Numbered from the stretch's first letter, positions 2,775-47,834 are shown. The stretch: DNA of 64,000 nucleotides from Escherichia coli (GCF_024298765.1 NZ_CP101212.1), one strand, 5' to 3'. Translations and numbers: made by a program. The notes: a model not told the origin generated them from the letters alone.

Positions 2775-2795
2775 TTGGTAATTATTATCATTAGC
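2775..2795. promoter_or_regulatory. Fur-box-like sequence about 440 bp upstream of iroB
   Basis: taattattatcattagc matches the AATGATAATCATTA core at 12 of 14 positions; no closer Fur-like site seen before the iroB start. Confidence 0.35.
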
Positions 2796-3236
2796 ATTTG
2801 TGTCTGTGTTGTTTCTGGTAAGGCTGAAAGGGAACAAACATCGCCTGTACAACGGCGTTTTTACTTACAGACCAGCGAAGGCGAGACTATCAGGATGATG
2901 CATCGTGTGTCTAAGAAATCACGGTTCTTTCCAGATTCGTTGTTCGGTCTAACACTGCACAAATGCGTCAGAACATCCCGGCGTAGCTGTCCGACGCCAT
3001 TTGGGCTGTTCAACAGGACAATGGCGCGTAAGCGTTAATGGAAGTGGGGATACGGAGTTCCCTGTTCACCTGTGTATGTCACGGAAAAGTCTCTGACTGA
3101 GCTGTCCATAACGCTGGTGAAGCACAAATGGCGCAGCATCTGGTAAAGCAGGTTTAACGAAAAGTCGTGTCCTGCTGCTGGCATATGAGTGCGTCGACTG
3201 CCTGATTTAGATCGTCAAGCGGAGAGGGATTTTCTC

Positions 3237-31045: not shown

Positions 31046-31160
31046 ATAACTATACTCCCCGCATAGCTGAATTGTTGGCTATGCGGTTTTATGGGGCCCC
31101 GGTAATCTTTCTAGTCGCCAAACTTGAAGAAGATTATCGGGGTTTTCGCTTTTCTGGCTC
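31046..31160 (+). ncRNA. copA: Predicted CopA-type antisense RNA region (coordinates approximate)
   Basis: Expected antisense to the repA leader between copB and tap; plus-strand hairpins with U-tracts at 31059-31091 and about 31098-31150; boundaries not resolved. Confidence 0.25.
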
Positions 31161-31276: not shown

Positions 31277-31534
31277 TTACGAAGTCGCTCTGCGTTTCAG
31301 CTCTGATTCAATCAGTTTTTCAAGCATCTGCGCCTGAGTAATACCTTCCTCATCCGCCAGTTCACTCAGCCTGTCTTTTAACCGGGCCTGAATAACCGCA
31401 TGAAAAGCCTTATGAGTGTTGCTTCTGCGAGCCAGAGAAGCTCTTTGCCTCTCTCTGGCCGGAACAGGGTTACCTTTCCGGTATGTACGCTTGGTGCCTG
31501 ATGAGGAAGTCACTGCATTTTCTGTCTGCGACAT
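31277..31534 (-). CDS. repA2: RepA2 / CopB transcriptional repressor
   Basis: 85 aa [11 protein letters not shown]...; 286 bp upstream of repA', the usual copB-to-repA spacing. Confidence 0.85.
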
Positions 31535-31789
31535 CTCGCCTCCTCAATTCTCAAACAGGGATCGTTTCGCAGAGAATACTACAGTTTTTTGAAATCAGCG
31601 ACTTGAAAGTTGTGACGATGATCTGTGTTGGCGCACAAATCATGTCTGATTACGACCGTTTAATGTGATTTTGATAATGAAATGACTGAAAAGCTGGAAA
31701 TGCCTTAGCCAGGGTGCCGGCCCCGGGCGGGACCGGCTGTTTCTGGTATATAGGGTGTCTGCCCCTGAAATACCTCACACTTCCGGAAA

Positions 31790-31809
31790 GCGGGGACTTC
31801 CGTCCCCGC
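31790..31809 (-). terminator. Hairpin just downstream of the srnB stop
   Basis: gcggggac-ttcc-gtccccgc, perfect 8 bp stem; short U stretch on the minus strand. Confidence 0.3.
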
Positions 31810-31817
31810 CCGGCAGC

Positions 31818-32024
31818 TTACTTCCGTGCTTCGTAGGCCAGAGTTACCTGCACCACTGTATTTCCTCTGTGAATATTCAGCTCACATAACCGTTCCCTGA
31901 ATATCAGTGAAAAACACAACACCGTGGCGCACACGGCGAGCAACCCGATAAGGGCATATTTCGTCATAAACTTTGACCTCTCAGCAAAGAAGAGGCTACA
32001 ATCAGTAGTGTTAAGGTACTTCAT
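31818..32024 (-). CDS. srnB: Hok/Gef-family type I toxin, SrnB-like
   Basis: 68 aa MKYLNTTDCSLFFAERSKFMTKYALIGLLAVCATVLCFSLIFRERLCELNIHRGNTVVQVTLAYEARK; single TM with the hok-family C-terminal motif. Confidence 0.8.
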   Translation of the reverse strand: MKYLNTTDCSLFFAERSKFMTKYALIGLLAVCATVLCFSLIFRERLCELNIHRGNTVVQVTLAYEARK

Positions 32025-32483
32025 GCAGACCTCACGAGTTAATGGATTAACGAGTGGGGTCTTCGCATTTCTGGTACCTGCGTCTTGCCTGAACCAGAAA
32101 GGCTCAAACACCCGCCGCGATAATACCACATTCCCTGTTGCTGACTATTACCCCCATTTGCCTGTTTTTGTTACAAAAACGCCGGGAGCGGGGGAAAACT
32201 TACTTTTTCCCGTTTCCGGGGGGGACAACTGAGCATTGCGAACGCGTCAGCTACGATGTTCCGGTGATTGCTGATCAGCCCCTGTTGTATTCATAAACTA
32301 ATTAACATTCATTCTGTCTGGTGCATAAATCTGCCCGTGAACATCTGCAGACAATACCGGCCATGAAAAGATAAATAATACCAGTGGAATATATTTCCTC
32401 ATGTTATTCTCCATATCAGATAAATGGCACCTGTATTTCAGCCCCCCTGAATATCGCAGCACACATTGAATAAGACCTTATTT

Positions 32484-32499: not shown

Positions 32500-32606
32500 A
32501 AATATAAAATCGCGACTTAATACGGAAAAAACTCTGTGCTACTCAGAACTGGCCGGTCATACTGCCCGACCGGATATTAAAAAAAGCAAATCTCATAAAC
32601 TCCTTT

Positions 32607-32647
32607 CAGCCTTCTGACTCCTGGAGTAATGAAGGCTGCTTTTTTCG
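32607..32647 (+). terminator. Plus-strand hairpin plus U-tract
   Basis: cagccttc ... gaaggctg stem with a 16 nt loop followed by CTTTTTTC. Confidence 0.35.
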
Positions 32648-32860
32648 TTACACCCTTCCCCGGCAGCGCCGGTGGCAGTGTTCAGCCCTTTTCCGGGCAA
32701 ACTGTTGCCAGTCTGTCCGGGGAGCTATGCAGGCAGCCCGTCGCCATGCTTCTGCCGCTTCCATCCAGCGTCCACTGACCTCCAGAATAACGGCCCGCCC
32801 GCCGGCACGCTGGTAACGCCAGACCTGACCGTTCCGTGAACTGTTTCTGAATCCATTCAT
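32648..32860 (-). CDS. Hypothetical small protein (70 aa)
   Basis: ORF only; no recognisable motifs. Confidence 0.3.
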   Translation of the reverse strand: MNGFRNSSRNGQVWRYQRAGGRAVILEVSGRWMEAAEAWRRAACIAPRTDWQQFARKRAEHCHRRCRGRV

Positions 32861-32967: not shown

Positions 32968-32997
32968 GCCTCCCCGGTTTCCGGGGAGGCTTTTTTT
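32968..32997 (+). terminator. Hairpin gcctccccgg-ttt-ccggggaggc plus T-run, abutting the finO stop
   Basis: Perfect 10 bp GC-rich stem followed by TTTTTTT on the plus strand; on the minus strand it follows the finO stop with an A-tract before it. Confidence 0.45.
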
Positions 32998-33556
32998 ATT
33001 TCCCATCAAGCACGGCCTGAAGTTCTGCCTTTGTCCGGTTCTGGCGGCGAATTTTCTCCAAACGCCCTGCCGCATACGCTTCCTCCTCCTGAGAAATATG
33101 CTCCGTCACATACCCTTCCGTGTCATACCGGCAGGCACCGGCTTTCATGGCACACAGATAGCTTTCTGAACGGGTGATGGCCTTCAGCGCCCGGCGCAGT
33201 TTTTTATGCGAGAGCGGGATATTCCGCTGCGCCACGTCTTCCAGTAACACGTCCCGGATACCGCAGGCCAGAAGCCGGGGCGTGTTACCGTCAAACAATC
33301 CCGGCCACCAAGGTTTCAGAGTGTTCACCGCCTCATCCAGCGAGGGCAGCGTCAGATAAATGGACAGCGCCTGTCTGGCCTGTGCTTTCTTCGCCGCCAG
33401 CTCTGCTTCCCGGGCAGCCTTCTCCGCCAGTTTCTGCTTTTTCACCTTCCATTTTGGTGGCGTGGTGACATTGATGATGGTTTTCCGGCTCCGGGTCGGT
33501 GTTTCCCCTTCCGTTTTCCGTTTCAGTGTCAGTACCGGTCGTTTCTGCTCTGTCAT
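32996..33556 (-). CDS. finO: Fertility inhibition protein FinO
   Basis: 186 aa, basic N-terminus, matches F-like FinO; uninterrupted. Confidence 0.92.
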
Positions 33557-35343: not shown

Positions 35344-38300
35344 TCAGTCTCCGCCCAGGGTTTTCTCTTTCTGCAGGTCACGAACCATATCCCGCTCCAT
35401 CTGCTGCAGTCGCTCCTGCAGCAGATTTTCCCGGGCAACCTCCCGGACCGCTTCCCGCACCCGTTGTGGTTCACGCAGTACACTCTCCGGCAGCGCGGCT
35501 TCCCGTTCAGATATGGCAGACCGGTCACGCTCCAGCCCGGCAATATCCCTGACAGCCTGCTCTGTTTTGCCGTCCGGCAGGTCAGGTTTGTTCTCTGCCA
35601 TTTTACGGACAATTTCATCCGCACGGCGTTCCGTTTCACGGCGGATGGCCTCTTCAGCCTGCCGCTGTGCCAGTACCTCTGCCGTGACCGGTTCGCCATT
35701 TCCGGCTCCCGGCTGAACGCTGTTGTCCGGGATATCCCCCCACACGCGACCACCGGTGATGGTTCTGGGATTCCACGGACGACCTTCACCGGCGATTCTT
35801 ACCACCACACCGCTGTCAGGATTATCACGGGCAATCCGGACACCATCCTGCATATTATCAGCCAGCAGGCTCTCTCCGTTACGGCTGCCCTGCAGGGCCA
35901 CGAACTGCGCATCCCCGCTGCCTTTCACCCGGCCTTCACCACTGAAGCCCCGCAGCCCGTTTCCGTCATCCGTGGTCAGCGGGTTCAGCCAGATACCAGC
36001 TGACTTGCCGTTACGGTCAAAAGCCGGCAGTGCCACATACGGCTGCGGATATTTGCGCCCGGGTGCAATAAACCGTGCAGGACTGTCTCCCCCGGCCAGC
36101 CCTGCCTGACGGAGAACGGCACGGCCGGCCACCACGTCCCGCAGCTCCCGCGCCGTACTGAACAGCCGCTCTGCATTCATGACCTCCCGGTCCGATTTCG
36201 GCTCCAGCACATCGTGGGCAGTTCCTTTCTGTACGGCATTGTTGATGGCATCCGTCCAGCCCTGACGGTTATCGGTGTACACCTGCACATGCTGCTTCAT
36301 ACGCGACAGGGCCACGTAGGCTGACTCAAAGCCGGCCATCAGTTTCCGGTTACCTTCCGTGCCTTCAAGCGCGATGGCAAAGGTTTCACTTGCCCCCTGC
36401 GCACCGTGGGCGGTGATGGCATAAGCCAGGTCAATATGTTGCTCTGCCCGCTCCTGACCTGGGCGAATCACCCGGATCTGCTGTCCGTCCGACAGCGTGA
36501 CACTGTCACCGGAAACCGCTGTCACCGTCCAGACGCTGTTGGCCACATAACCTCGCTCCCGGTCACTCTTCGTGAAGCGCATCCGGTCACCGGTTCCCAC
36601 CCGGATGGTGTCCGGGGTGTACAGTGTGACGCCTTCAGCCACCGCCTCCCGGGGCGAAATCAGCCGCGTGTTACCTTCCGCATCCTCCAGGGTTATCAGC
36701 CCGTCATCCTTGCTGATACCGGCAATCCGGTGATACACACTATCCACCAGGGCAAGGGCATCCGGGTTATTCTCCCAGGTGGAGAGACGACGCAGTTCTC
36801 CGTCACGTATATTCGCTGTGTTCAGGACAGGCACCATGACCTGCTCTTTGCCCAGCTCACCGGCCTTTTCCCGTGCATCATGAATCATGCTGTTCAGTAC
36901 GCGCCGGTCCTCATTCAGGTGTGTGACAATCAGCGTCTGCTCCCGTGCTTCCGGTGTCCTGCCGGTATAGTCGCGGACAATGGCTTCATACAGTGTCATG
37001 GGGATATCCGGGAAAGCCTCGCCTTTCAGCATCGCCTTCTGCTGCGCTTCTGCCAGTTTCGCTTCCTGGCTGTGACTGAACTCCGTCACGGAGTGCTCCG
37101 GTGCCCATGCGCCCTCCTGACGGGGAACCTGAGACGGTTTCACACTCTCAAGCCCGGACAGTGCCCTTTCCACATCCCGGTTAATCAGGCTGTATACCGC
37201 CTCCCGCAGTTCCGGCGTCTGACGCACAATCTCCTTCATGATGACCACATCGGCAGCACTGCGCGTCTGCTGGAGACGGAAAGGCTGACCGGGCGCGATG
37301 GCCTGCAACTGGTCCGTGTCACCACTGGCCACGGCACGACCGCCACCGGCCGCAATCAGGGCGTATGCCCGTGCCATGTCGGTATTGCCCACCATAGAGC
37401 TCTCATCGAGCAGGAACAGCGTGTTGCTGAAATTCGGCGTTTCTCCGCTGCGCTGCAGCAGCTGCGTGTCATGCAGAAAGGACGCCAGCGTCTGTGCATC
37501 CACGCCGGCGCTGCGCATCTCACCGACCGCACGGTGCGTGGGCCCCAGCCCCACGACACGGGGACGTTCACTCTCCGGCAGCATGTTCACGGCTGACATC
37601 ACCGCCCGGAACTGTGTGGTCTTACCCACACCGGCATAGCCCTGCACCACCGTGAAACGGTCGGACGTTTCCAGTATCATGCGGGTAGCGGCACGCTGTC
37701 CTGATGTCAGTTTCTCCATGAGTTCGCCAGGTACTCTCTCCATCAGTGGCGTGACCGCCTCCTTACCTTCGAGAATATGGCGAAGAATGCTCTTTTCTGC
37801 CTCATACGACGCACGGGAAACCAGCAGGCCTGTGCCATAGCCTTTTGCCACATCCACATACAGTAAATCACCGCGTTTTATCTGCGCATTGATTTCCCCT
37901 CCCAGTTCAGTAAAACTGGTTCCTTCTGCAGCAAACGACTTCGCCTCTGTCAGCAGGTCCACCATGCTGAAGGCCAGGTTTTTACTTTCCACCACAGGAA
38001 GCGCCAGATGAATAGCCTGCTGTGCCGGCGTGTGAAGCCCGGTTTTCTGCAGACTGATAGCGGTTTCCAGCAATGTCTCACCGGCACGCGCCTTTATCTG
38101 CTCAGAAACCACCGTAAAGGAGGGATGGCGGGCAAGTTTTTCCGCAGTACGGGTTTCATCCAGTGAGGAATACAGCCGGACATCACGACCGCTGCGGGCC
38201 AGACCGTTCAGGGTGGCGTTGTCCATTGCCATCTGTGTGACGGAGGCAAAAACCTTCGCACTGTCGCTGACGGAATGCCCGGGCGTTTCCACCCAGCCGT

Positions 38301-45011: not shown

Positions 45012-47834
45012 TTATTGCTTATACTTATCCTGATACTCCTTTGCCCTTTTCATCAGTTCCTGTGGACTGTCAGCCCCGGGCATTCTTTCCTGAGCCGACT
45101 TTTCTTCATTATATTTATTATTCTGAGATAATGCCTCTGTTTTATGGTGATTCTGCAGTTCAGAATACTGTCCTCTTACAATATTTTCCTCGCCACGTAT
45201 GCTGTTCTGAGTATCACCTATATTCCCTTTATATTCTGTGACCATATTATCAACCTGATGTTTTACATCATTACGGATATTACTGTCCTGCATTCTTTGC
45301 TCAATAATGGCCTGATGTCCCTGATGGTCAGCAATAATATCCTGACTGCCTCCACCCGAAGGTACGCTCTCCATTCCTTTACCAATATCGCCACGGGATT
45401 CCCGCCAGGCATTATCAACACCAGGCTGTATCTGTTCCTGCACAAAAGACCAGGCCATTGCCCGACGGCGTTCTGCAATCTCCGGCGAACTGGTATTTGT
45501 CAGAATAGCTTCGGCATCCTGCGGTGCGTGTTTCATCACATACTGTGCAAACTGTTGCGACAAATCTTCGCTCATCTGCCCACTCATGCTTTCAGTACGG
45601 GATGCCATTTCAGCATATTCATGGCTGCGGGTCATATTCGTCGTGTACTGGTCGTAACTCTGTTTCGCTGAATTCAGGGCTGCAGACAGTTGATCCACCC
45701 GGGAATCAGCATTATTGTCAGTATGGCTGCCGGATTCACTGACTTTGCGACTGGTAAAGTAATCGCTGGCCTCTTTAAAGTCCTTACTGGCTTTAGCGTC
45801 AATATCATGACGAGCATCATAGCTGGCCCGTGAACCACTGCTGGCCTGATGCGCATCATCATCACTCCAGTCAATGCCAGCCCGACCACCACCTCTAACG
45901 CCTAATCCTCCACCAACACCAAGAATTTTAGGTTTAACCCCCCATTCAGCATGAGCATCTCCATACATCCCGGCAGAAGCTCTCGTACTTCTGGATGCCA
46001 GTTCCTGAGTCGCCTGCTCATTACTGATATTATGCGCCTTCGCATAGCTTTCCACTGCACTGCGCATACGGCTGGCCATCATGGAGTCCTGTGCACTCAT
46101 CGTACTGTCAGCACCACTGGTGACAGAGTCACTGCTCCCCCGGTTAGAACCAAACTGACTGAGCGTGTTCCAGGCACTGGCAATACTGCTGCTGAAACCA
46201 TGCAGGGCACTTTCTGCTCTGTTCGACGCCTCCCGGGCCATTTCCTGTTGTGCCACTGCAATCTGACGCGTTGCATTGATACCGACCGGTAAACGGGACA
46301 TCGCTCCGCTTGCATCCATCACCATATTACCGTCACGGGTCTGTGTGGCGGTTGCGCCACTGCCGGTCTGGTACATCATCTGACCAAACGACGTGGTGCT
46401 GTTGGTGCTCCAGCTGAAGCCGTTCACGTTTTCCGTCTGCATGTTGCCGTAGGAGTAATTACCGTCAACCACACTACCTGCCGCACTGGCAGTCGGGCTG
46501 ATAGCAGAGGAAGCGAAATGGCTGTACACACTGGAAAATCCGGCCCCAAGCCCCCTGACCATCATCCAGGATAATGGCGGGATCATCATGGAAAGATACC
46601 CGGCAGTGGAAGCCAGATCGGAGTATTTCAGTTGTATCTGTGAAATTTCAGAGAGCACCACCGGCGCACCATTCTGTTTCGCATAAAATGTCATGGCACT
46701 GTTCAGAATGGCGTACAAGAGTGGCCATGACTGCAGCCACATCAGGGCAAACACATAACCTTTCAGGACAGACAGCGTCAGTTTGTTGAATACAGCCGCC
46801 AGTACCAGGAGCGGGAAAATACCGATGGCGATCCCCGTCAGGATGGTCTGCGTCATGGGCAGTGTCCGCATCGCCACATGACCGATGGAGACATGTGCCA
46901 GACGTTGTTTCTCCATCGATGACGTGGTGGCCAGATTCACCAGGCTGGCCGAATCACCATTACGTGCGGCATAACTGGTGATCCCCTCCTTCAGCGCATT
47001 GATGGTGACATTCTGGCGGATGATCTGGCTGGCTGATTTACTTGAGCCATAGAAGTAACTGTAACTGTCGCCAATCAGCGTACTGAACAGCAGGTTAGGA
47101 TCAGGGCGTCCACCAAATAGCTGCTGGGCATAATAATGCCAGGTTTTTCCGCCACTCTGTGTGTCCAGATTCAGCTTGTCTTTCAGCGAAACCGACGCGT
47201 CCTTACAGGTTACGAAATTATTATTGCTGTCATAAACGCCCCGCAGCGGGCTGGGGCGGGAAAAAATCAGCGTGTAGGGATCAGCGGAGGCCATCAGCTC
47301 CTCCAGCGTGTATTTGTGGTTCAGGTAAATATCCCCCATAACACAGTTCTGCACATAATCCTGGAAAAGATTGGCGATTTCCGGATTGCGGGACAAAAAG
47401 TCGGTGCTTTTTGATACCAGTTCTGCGCCAAACAGCATCCCCGTTTTGCTGTAGGTGACACTGTCCGGTTGCGTGAAGATCATCTCGTAACTGGCCACCA
47501 TTGCATGCCCGATACGGGTCGTCAGTGAAAGTGGCATCGCCAGTCCGACCGGCACATTATCCACCCGGTGAACTTTGACCAGGTCACTGTTATCAATAAT
47601 CTGCACCGATGTGCGGACATTAACCAGCAGGCTGATAAGCACAAATACGGCCACCCAGCCCAGCAAATCCATCACGTTGTGCCGCTGTACCCACATTACG
47701 GCCACCGCGAGAACAGACAATGTGAGCGCAATTTTTTCAATGGAATCCCACGTCCTGGTTCCCATAAAGGCGGCAATGGCGTTCAGGTTATTCCGCAACC
47801 ACTCACCACCGGCAATCACATAAACTTCATTCAC
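45012..47834 (-). CDS. traG: Mating-pair stabilisation protein TraG
   Basis: 940 aa; synteny. Confidence 0.93.
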   Translation of the reverse strand: MNEVYVIAGGEWLRNNLNAIAAFMGTRTWDSIEKIALTLSVLAVAVMWVQRHNVMDLLGWVAVFVLISLLVNVRTSVQIIDNSDLVKVHRVDNVPVGLAMPLSLTTRIGHAMVASYEMIFTQPDSVTYSKTGMLFGAELVSKSTDFLSRNPEIANLFQDYVQNCVMGDIYLNHKYTLEELMASADPYTLIFSRPSPLRGVYDSNNNFVTCKDASVSLKDKLNLDTQSGGKTWHYYAQQLFGGRPDPNLLFSTLIGDSYSYFYGSSKSASQIIRQNVTINALKEGITSYAARNGDSASLVNLATTSSMEKQRLAHVSIGHVAMRTLPMTQTILTGIAIGIFPLLVLAAVFNKLTLSVLKGYVFALMWLQSWPLLYAILNSAMTFYAKQNGAPVVLSEISQIQLKYSDLASTAGYLSMMIPPLSWMMVRGLGAGFSSVYSHFASSAISPTASAAGSVVDGNYSYGNMQTENVNGFSWSTNSTTSFGQMMYQTGSGATATQTRDGNMVMDASGAMSRLPVGINATRQIAVAQQEMAREASNRAESALHGFSSSIASAWNTLSQFGSNRGSSDSVTSGADSTMSAQDSMMASRMRSAVESYAKAHNISNEQATQELASRSTRASAGMYGDAHAEWGVKPKILGVGGGLGVRGGGRAGIDWSDDDAHQASSGSRASYDARHDIDAKASKDFKEASDYFTSRKVSESGSHTDNNADSRVDQLSAALNSAKQSYDQYTTNMTRSHEYAEMASRTESMSGQMSEDLSQQFAQYVMKHAPQDAEAILTNTSSPEIAERRRAMAWSFVQEQIQPGVDNAWRESRGDIGKGMESVPSGGGSQDIIADHQGHQAIIEQRMQDSNIRNDVKHQVDNMVTEYKGNIGDTQNSIRGEENIVRGQYSELQNHHKTEALSQNNKYNEEKSAQERMPGADSPQELMKRAKEYQDKYKQ

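Follow-up and report, generated by a model that had tools for sequence, protein, structure and literature searches.

The srnB/srnC locus of F-type plasmids ranks among the founding cases of post-segregational killing controlled by an antisense RNA, and sequenced IncF plasmids carry it by the thousand. The copy described here lies in a stretch of 64,000 nucleotides from Escherichia coli (GCF_024298765.1, NZ_CP101212.1), which was analyzed as a whole and is referred to as the window. The question that it raises is whether the locus is complete, which of its overlapping reading frames corresponds to the toxin, and where its antisense RNA lies. Positions 31705-32147 of the window constitute a complete hok/sok-type type I toxin-antitoxin locus, srnB/srnC, which we consider very probably an intact post-segregational killing module carried by an F-like plasmid (ColV-type IncF). 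The srnB/srnC system of F-type plasmids has long been known, and the present copy is an ordinary one. Its significance beyond annotation is small; a useful by-product of the analysis is a base-level map of the regulatory elements (Table 1) for a common sequence variant.

Table 1. Coordinates of the srnB/srnC elements and of surrounding features, counted from the first nucleotide of the window
Feature	Position	Strand	Remarks
srnB promoter-like site	32120..32147	minus	-35 TAGTCA, 16-nt spacer, TG-extended -10 TATTAT; 9/12 matches
Full-length srnB mRNA, ~410 nt (predicted)	31705..32113	minus	5' end from promoter and Rfam model
tac element GGGUGUUUG	32105..32113 (mRNA nt 1-9)	minus	pairs fbi (full-length) or ucb (open form)
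ucb / anti-SD box AGACCCC	32056..32062 (mRNA nt 52-58)	minus	hides leader SD when closed, pairs tac when open
Leader-ORF Shine-Dalgarno GAGG	32030..32033 (mRNA nt 81-84)	minus	read directly; ucb-paired in full-length MFE
Target hairpin, open form (SD paired with dcb GCCUC, 31992-31996)	31992..32033	minus	Rfam structure line
68-codon ORF ("SrnB" of UniProt; mok-equivalent leader ORF)	32024..31818, including stop	minus	in frame with toxin
Toxin SD GAGAGG of the 49-codon ORF	31977-31982	minus
49-codon Hok-domain toxin ORF (MTKYALIG...EARK)	31818..31967	minus	Pfam domain confined to this part
Post-stop GC hairpin, 8-bp core GCGGGGAC/GTCCCCGC (31790-31797/31802-31809)	31783..31815	minus
fbi element CAGACACCC	31753..31761 (mRNA nt 353-361)	minus	complementary to tac
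Terminal 9-bp GC hairpin	31717..31738	minus	downstream of fbi; from folding
SrnC promoter	31973..32002	plus	promoter-like: TTGACC, 18-nt spacer, TACAAT; 10/12 consensus matches
SrnC antisense RNA, ~62 nt (predicted)	32009..32070	plus	ends uncertain by a few nt
repA (IncFII)	29646..30518
CopA RNA	31063-31151
copB-like regulator (RepB-RCR_reg; CopB/RepB-type)	31277..31534
finO	32996..33556
tra genes	beyond 34.5 kb	minus
IS66-family transposase	27112..28650		just beyond replicon
54-aa ORF as listed	32298-32462	minus	between srnB and ANR-like gene
AS-pc02 (Rfam)	32566-32751	plus	181.9 bits
70-aa ORF	32648-32860	minus	ANR-like
Alpha/beta-hydrolase gene, 286 aa	33659-34519	minus	Abhydrolase_1, E=8.5e-33
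vapB/vapC-like pair, 75 and 132 aa	40696-41321	plus	type II toxin-antitoxin
STnc490 (Rfam)	356-477	minus
AS-traI (Rfam)	37689-37765	plus
AS-traG (Rfam)	47030-47115	plus

Identity and genomic setting of the locus

A preliminary description of this DNA had proposed an SrnB-type type I toxin locus, and both the alignment to the F plasmid and the Rfam search support that proposal. Against F (NC_002483, whose Hok/Gef coding sequence at 2926..3075 adjoins a replication regulator and tap), the locus is approximately 97% identical in DNA sequence, with 13 mismatches in ~483 aligned columns as counted manually from the alignment, and L13F is the only amino acid change. The Rfam family RF01794 ("sok") scored 90.2 bits, where 59 is the gathering score, and similarity to Hok/Gef-family toxins was found with the Pfam HOK_GEF model. 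Every element is intact in the window copy, including both promoters, tac, ucb, SD, dcb, fbi, both ORFs, and the hairpins.

The locus is carried by more than 2,900 plasmid records, most of them from Escherichia, Klebsiella, Shigella, and Salmonella, and the variant of the 68-aa protein with phenylalanine at position 13 (F13), which is the form in the window, occurs in at least 1,000 contigs. It is flanked on one side by finO, which closes the tra region, and on the other by the IncFII replicon (copB/CopA/repA), and the gene order finO, srnB, copB/RepB-type regulator, CopA, repA is alike in F and in plasmid p147. The plasmid belongs to the ColV type and has iroN and cvaB upstream. Degraded copies occur elsewhere. 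Plasmid pGMI17-003_3 (L002, 300-800) has a decayed srnB with unrelated DNA in place of the promoter and tac, pRHB30-C16_4 (L003, 330-830) differs in its 5' region and lacks the hairpin behind the stop codon, and Shigella virulence plasmids (H83, H84) retain only the 3' third of srnB.

The srnB mRNA and its leader

The promoter-like site on the toxin strand predicts an mRNA start at ~32113; the -10 element and the start region are identical in F, and the Rfam leader model begins at exactly the same nucleotide. The predicted 3' end is uncertain by ~25 nt. When the 409-nt RNA from 32113 to 31705 was folded, its minimum free energy (MFE) was -177.4 kcal/mol, with a z score of -9.5 against 100 shuffled sequences.

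The RF01794 match covers model positions 1-157 of 157 and runs along the minus (toxin) strand from 32113 to 31955. The Rfam search that had been suggested for finding the antisense RNA thus places the locus in the right family, but the hit is the leader of the toxin mRNA and does not describe the antisense RNA. The model, which is named "sok antitoxin (CssrC)," matches the toxin-gene strand in all eight loci to which it was applied (the window, L001, and L004 to L009), and each match runs up to the toxin start codon or close to it. The 157 positions of the model correspond to the leader of a hok mRNA, comprising the tac stem and the target hairpin, and not the ~64-nt antisense RNA, and automated annotation with RF01794 will therefore place "sok" on the wrong strand.

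Alternative pairings of the mRNA 5' end

In the full-length fold, tac and fbi form nine consecutive pairs, one of them G-U, which make up the closing helix of the MFE structure. The pair probabilities are 0.93-1.0, and forcing fbi to remain unpaired costs ~14 kcal/mol. In the same fold, the leader SD is paired to ucb. The 125-nt 5' fragment behaves differently when it is folded by itself, as its MFE structure is the open form, with the tac stem and the target hairpin. That hairpin is also returned by RNAalifold, as a helix at columns 93-97/130-134, and its loop, CCUUAACAC (32008-32016), contains a YUNR-type CUUA. A 30-nt nascent RNA folds into a 5' hairpin resembling the metastable one that has been reported.

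Since copies within the srnB lineage are 93 to 100% identical and hence uninformative, covariation was sought in distant Hok loci on plasmids of E. coli, Aeromonas, Vibrio, and the IncI group. One locus (L008) was excluded from this argument, as its Rfam score was 52 against 59 and it yielded no convincing 5'/3' duplex from the assumed start. The relatives have a 5'/3' duplex 345 to 378 nt downstream with compensatory changes: tac GUCUG and fbi CAGAC in F srnB become GCUUG and CAAGC in pT267A (L004) and the Aeromonas locus (L005) and GGGCGC and GCGCCC in the IncI loci (L006, L007). The ucb element varies in step with tac, being AAGAC in srnB versus AAAGC in the relatives, and at tac position 7 the U of the window makes a G-U pair where F has C-G, so that pairing is kept with both partners. 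This three-way coupling of tac, ucb, and fbi is what would be expected if tac alternates between fbi and ucb. For six leaders, RNAalifold returned both the tac stem and the SD/dcb helix, with double changes in 10 of the 24 consensus pairs.

The behavior of the truncated mRNA is less clear-cut. When the RNA was shortened in silico to 32113..31786, the expected open form was not the MFE structure; the SD hairpin persisted, and constrained folding placed the open form 2.1 kcal/mol above the minimum. Because the MFE structure of the truncated RNA stays closed, the calculated energetics allow the switch but do not prove it, and the energetic support for it is weak.

A second perfect 8-nt complementarity was observed between 31740-31747 (ACCAGAAA, in the mRNA 3' untranslated region just 3' of fbi) and 32093-32100 (UUUCUGGU, in the 5' stem arm). 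This pairing would form a pseudoknot with tac/fbi or would compete with the local tac stem. Its counterpart in F is GCCAGAAA, which is compatible via a G-U pair.

The antisense RNA SrnC

The promoter assigned to SrnC is the only plus-strand promoter-like site in 31600-32300. Across seven family loci its -10 hexamer does not vary at positions 2, 5, and 6 and has T at position 1 in six of the seven, and the TTG of its -35 hexamer overlaps the toxin SD on the opposite strand. To delimit the RNA, the start was placed 7 nt after the -10 hexamer and the end ~11 nt past the GGGG that follows the hairpin. The resulting predicted RNA (Table 1) has a 14-nt single-stranded 5' tail, UGUUAAGGUACUUC, then a long hairpin and a tail, GGGGUCUUCGCAUUU, with a folding energy of -21.8 kcal/mol, and its 5' tail contains the complement of the target loop. 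Applied to five relatives, the same rule gives predicted RNAs of 59 to 64 nt that are alike in shape.

The preliminary description had looked for the antisense RNA on the plus strand near 32020-32100. The strand stands, whereas the predicted limits are shifted to the left, overlapping that interval by ~50 nt; 32071-32100 is antisense to the tac stem and lies outside the predicted SrnC. As delimited here, SrnC would cover mRNA nt 44-105, which include ucb, the SD, and the first codons of the 68-codon ORF, a span that would be expected of a Sok-like repressor.

Toxin reading frames

The locus was previously described as encoding a 68-aa Hok/Gef-family toxin. The ORF, whose translation is MKYLNTTDCSLFFAERSKFMTKYALIGLLAVCATVLCFSLIFRERLCELNIHRGNTVVQVTLAYEARK, and the family assignment are both confirmed (HOK_GEF, PF01848, E=5.2e-9, 36 bits versus a cut-off of 22), but the 68 residues are the leader-extended form of a 49-aa toxin. 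Profile positions 1-42 of 42 fall on residues 23-64; the Hok domain is the last 49 codons, which the 68-aa ORF extends in frame by a "mok-like" leader. The RefSeq annotation in F and in p147 is the 49-aa form, which is identical between the window and F, whereas the F 68-aa protein is UniProt SRNB_ECOLI and differs from that of the window by L13F in the N-terminal extension. We take the name "srnB-prime" to denote the 49-codon toxin ORF and "srnB" to denote the mok equivalent. Membrane-damaging toxicity has been reported for F SrnB, with SrnC from its own promoter delaying the toxicity (PMC12390103), and the window toxin shares the 49-aa core of F SrnB without a change.

The family pattern comprises a length of ~50 aa and a hydrophobic helix at the N terminus, then R-[DE]-x-L-C-x-L and a LAYE-type motif at the C terminus, and the protein has all of these (MTKYALIGLLAVCATVLCFSLIF-RERLCEL-...-TLAYEARK); translations of the relatives' toxins carry VRDSLCEL/GL and LAYE. 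Scores against two NCBIfam models were below threshold, at 33.2 versus a cut-off of 89 for the HokA equivalog NF007290 and 31.9 versus 73 for the Hok subfamily model NF007279. SrnB is outside these narrower models, and its membership in the broad Pfam family is unaffected.

The leader ORF starts inside the antisense target and reads into the toxin ORF. Its ATG is at mRNA nt 90, with GAGG 5 nt upstream, and the leader ORFs of the other family loci examined start at nt 95 to 98. It shares the frame of the toxin in the window and in F but is out of frame in the Aeromonas (L005) and IncI (L006) loci. It follows from the shared frame that ribosomes opening from the upstream ATG must make the 68-aa N-extended Hok protein. 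This isoform might have a role of its own, for instance as a pro-toxin of lower activity or as a form that inserts differently, and not merely arise from translational coupling, an idea that we regard as rather unlikely.

The 68-codon ORF is itself the inner part of a 103-aa ORF with a GTG start (32129..31818, minus). This longer frame was considered as a gene product and rejected, and the corresponding database entry is probably an over-extended gene call, because its start precedes the predicted transcription start at 32113. Databases list it as "Hok/Gef family protein" (P0008, 62 contigs), along with a 97-aa version. For this one gene they give three ORF lengths, 49, 68, and 103 aa.

The hairpin behind the stop codon and the transcript end

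A perfect 8-bp hairpin just past the stop codon had also been noted beforehand, and it is indeed there: the arms are 100% complementary and enclose a 4-nt loop, and the first arm begins 8 nt past the stop codon. Folding of the 45 nt downstream of the stop gives -26.4 kcal/mol, compared with a shuffle mean of -16.4, and none of 200 shuffles was as good. Both the 68-codon ORF and this hairpin are real and not products of chance. A strong hairpin stands at the same place in all six family loci folded (0/200 shuffles equal in each case), although the sequences are unrelated, as in the stems GUGGGGGG/CCCCCCAC, GGCGGCAG/CUGCCGCC, and GGAGAGAGAG/CUCUCUCUCC.

In R1 hok/sok, substitutions that weaken the last stem-loop of the truncated mRNA abolish toxicity, and the authors predict that the weakened stem-loop acts through RNase degradation (PMC9841398). 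Because of this effect, we infer by analogy that the post-stop hairpin of srnB would serve to protect the 3' end of the processed, active mRNA rather than to terminate transcription. The fbi box lies ~40 nt beyond it, and the transcript is predicted to run ~100 nt past it, to a probable end at the terminal GC hairpin (Table 1). That hairpin was not called in the terminator scan and has no clear U-tract, and the mRNA 3' end is therefore approximate.

The terminator scan gave one hit in all, at 31938..31920 on the minus strand, inside the toxin coding sequence, in the region coding for the transmembrane helix. It consists of a 7-bp stem (CGCCGTG...CACGGTG) followed by TTGTGTTTTT and may be due to chance or represent an attenuating structure.

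Alternative readings

It is possible, though we are doubtful of it, that the 68-aa protein from the ATG at 32024 is the toxin or a functional isoform and that the internal ATG at 31967 may lack independent use. The in-frame arrangement in the window and in F, in place of the different frame of L005 and L006, would fit such a reading, as would the obligatory N-extended product of ribosomes starting at nt 90, the good SD of the upstream ATG, and the length of 68 aa that UniProt gives for SrnB. The restriction of the Hok/Gef profile to residues 23-64 argues instead for the shorter form. Toxins of the family have 46 to 51 aa, and the 49-codon ORF has an SD of its own, GAGAGG, and is the form annotated in RefSeq. 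The sole difference from F falls within the extension, which suggests looser constraint there. We favor the 49-codon ORF as the toxin, though the 68-aa product, or both, may be what kills.

The hairpin behind the stop codon could also be viewed as the terminator of a short toxin mRNA of ~325 nt, with the downstream sequence untranscribed, as it is a strong GC hairpin right after the stop that is followed by CUUUCC with three U residues. However, the terminator scan detected no U-tract there, published work puts this hairpin at the 3' end of the processed mRNA (PMC9841398), and fbi, 40 nt downstream, is complementary to the first nucleotides of the mRNA and changes together with them throughout the family, so that transcription must read through the hairpin; we regard termination at this site as extremely improbable and keep to the protective 3' stem-loop. 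It is likewise very improbable that the locus is an inactive relic that has lost its killing function and is conserved by hitch-hiking beside the replicon. Decay of this kind has happened elsewhere, in pGMI17-003_3, where promoter and tac are replaced and the coding sequence has a 2-bp deletion, in pRHB30-C16_4, which is without the post-stop hairpin, and in the partial remnants of Shigella plasmids. In the window copy, by contrast, all elements are intact, the toxin is identical to the experimentally toxic SrnB of F (PMC12390103), and the single tac change relative to F, C7 to U, retains G-U pairing with both partners. An intact module remains the preferred reading.

Proposed mechanism

The published model for this family holds that the full-length mRNA is inert, that slow 3' processing drops fbi and allows refolding, and that the antisense RNA then binds and RNase III cleaves the duplex, while upon plasmid loss the antisense RNA decays and the toxin is translated (PMC9841398, PMC4147584). 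Processing at the 3' end, cleavage of the duplex, and post-segregational killing have been established for hok, srnB, and pnd in work to which PMC4147584 and PMC9841398 refer. For the window, the ORFs, the homology, the promoter-like sites, and the alternative pairings with their covariation come from computation, and the ends of both transcripts are predictions. Processing, RNase III cleavage, RNA half-lives, and killing would follow the published hok, srnB, and pnd work.

On this basis, a weak TG-extended promoter (32147-32120, minus) would make a stable mRNA of ~410 nt from ~32113. Within the full-length transcript, tac at nt 1-9 would pair with fbi ~350 nt downstream, and the CCCC box (ucb) would mask the SD of the leader ORF, so that there would be no translation. 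According to the hok paradigm, slow 3' trimming would remove fbi and halt at the GC hairpin after the stop codon, upon which the 5' end would refold into the tac-ucb and SD-dcb pairs, exposing the leader start and the target loop. In plasmid-carrying cells, short-lived SrnC of ~62 nt would bind that loop via its single-stranded 5' tail, cover the leader SD and start, block translation, and mark the duplex for RNase III. After plasmid loss, SrnC would decay first, and translation of the leader ORF and of the 49-residue toxin would lead to inner membrane damage.

Neighboring features

Several other features were recorded in the window. Rfam AS-pc02 ("antisense to pHK01_099") lies opposite the 70-aa ORF, which is an ANR-family transcriptional regulator in the near-identical p147 annotation; a Pfam search of this ORF gave no match. 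The neighboring ORF listed at 54 aa, which reads MRKYIPLVLFIFSWPVLSADVHGQIYAPDRMNVN from an internal ATG, has a signal-peptide-like N-terminus, and it too gave no match in a Pfam search. The alpha/beta-hydrolase gene is between finO and traX, and p147, otherwise 99% identical, is without this ~1-kb hydrolase segment. The vapB/vapC-like pair is between traI and traD on the strand opposite the tra operon, and p147 is arranged alike. Further Rfam matches above the gathering score were the Hfq-binding RNA STnc490 and the antisense RNAs AS-traI and AS-traG.

Comparison with known systems

The closest known system is srnB/srnC of F (NC_002483, ~2780-3190), with which the DNA identity extends from the promoter through the leader, the ORFs, and the 3' untranslated region to fbi, and which has the same position on the finO side of an IncFII-type copB/CopA/repA replicon. 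Besides the 49-aa toxin, the SrnC promoter hexamers and the SrnC 5' tail are identical. The 13 substitutions include those behind L13F and tac C7 to U, the latter making G-U out of G-C in the pairing to fbi as well as to ucb. One more falls in the internal loop of the SrnC hairpin, and two fall in the spacer of the SrnC promoter; upstream of the mRNA promoter -35, the sequences are unrelated.

Compared by description, hok/sok (parB) of R1 has the same components: a Hok-family toxin, the tac/fbi lock, a ucb anti-SD, an SD/dcb target hairpin, a post-stop hairpin, a leader ORF that starts in the antisense target, and a cis-antisense RNA of ~60 to 65 nt with a single-stranded 5' tail, which for the window is a prediction. 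The difference lies in the leader ORF, which in srnB is in frame and gives a 68-aa extended protein, whereas mok of R1 is presumably in a different reading frame from hok. R1 mok is a separate 70-aa ORF overlapping hok (PMC9841398).

The more distant Hok-family toxins that were compared are 41 to 66% identical to that of the window. The pnd-type loci of IncI plasmids, such as pECY56 and pSTM7, match the same Rfam leader model at 133 to 134 bits. In these loci a hairpin again follows the stop codon, tac and fbi are spaced about as far apart, and the antisense promoter has the same position. They differ in a toxin that is ~46 to 48% identical, in their tac/fbi sequences, GGGCGC/GCGCCC, and in a leader ORF of 67 codons that is out of frame.
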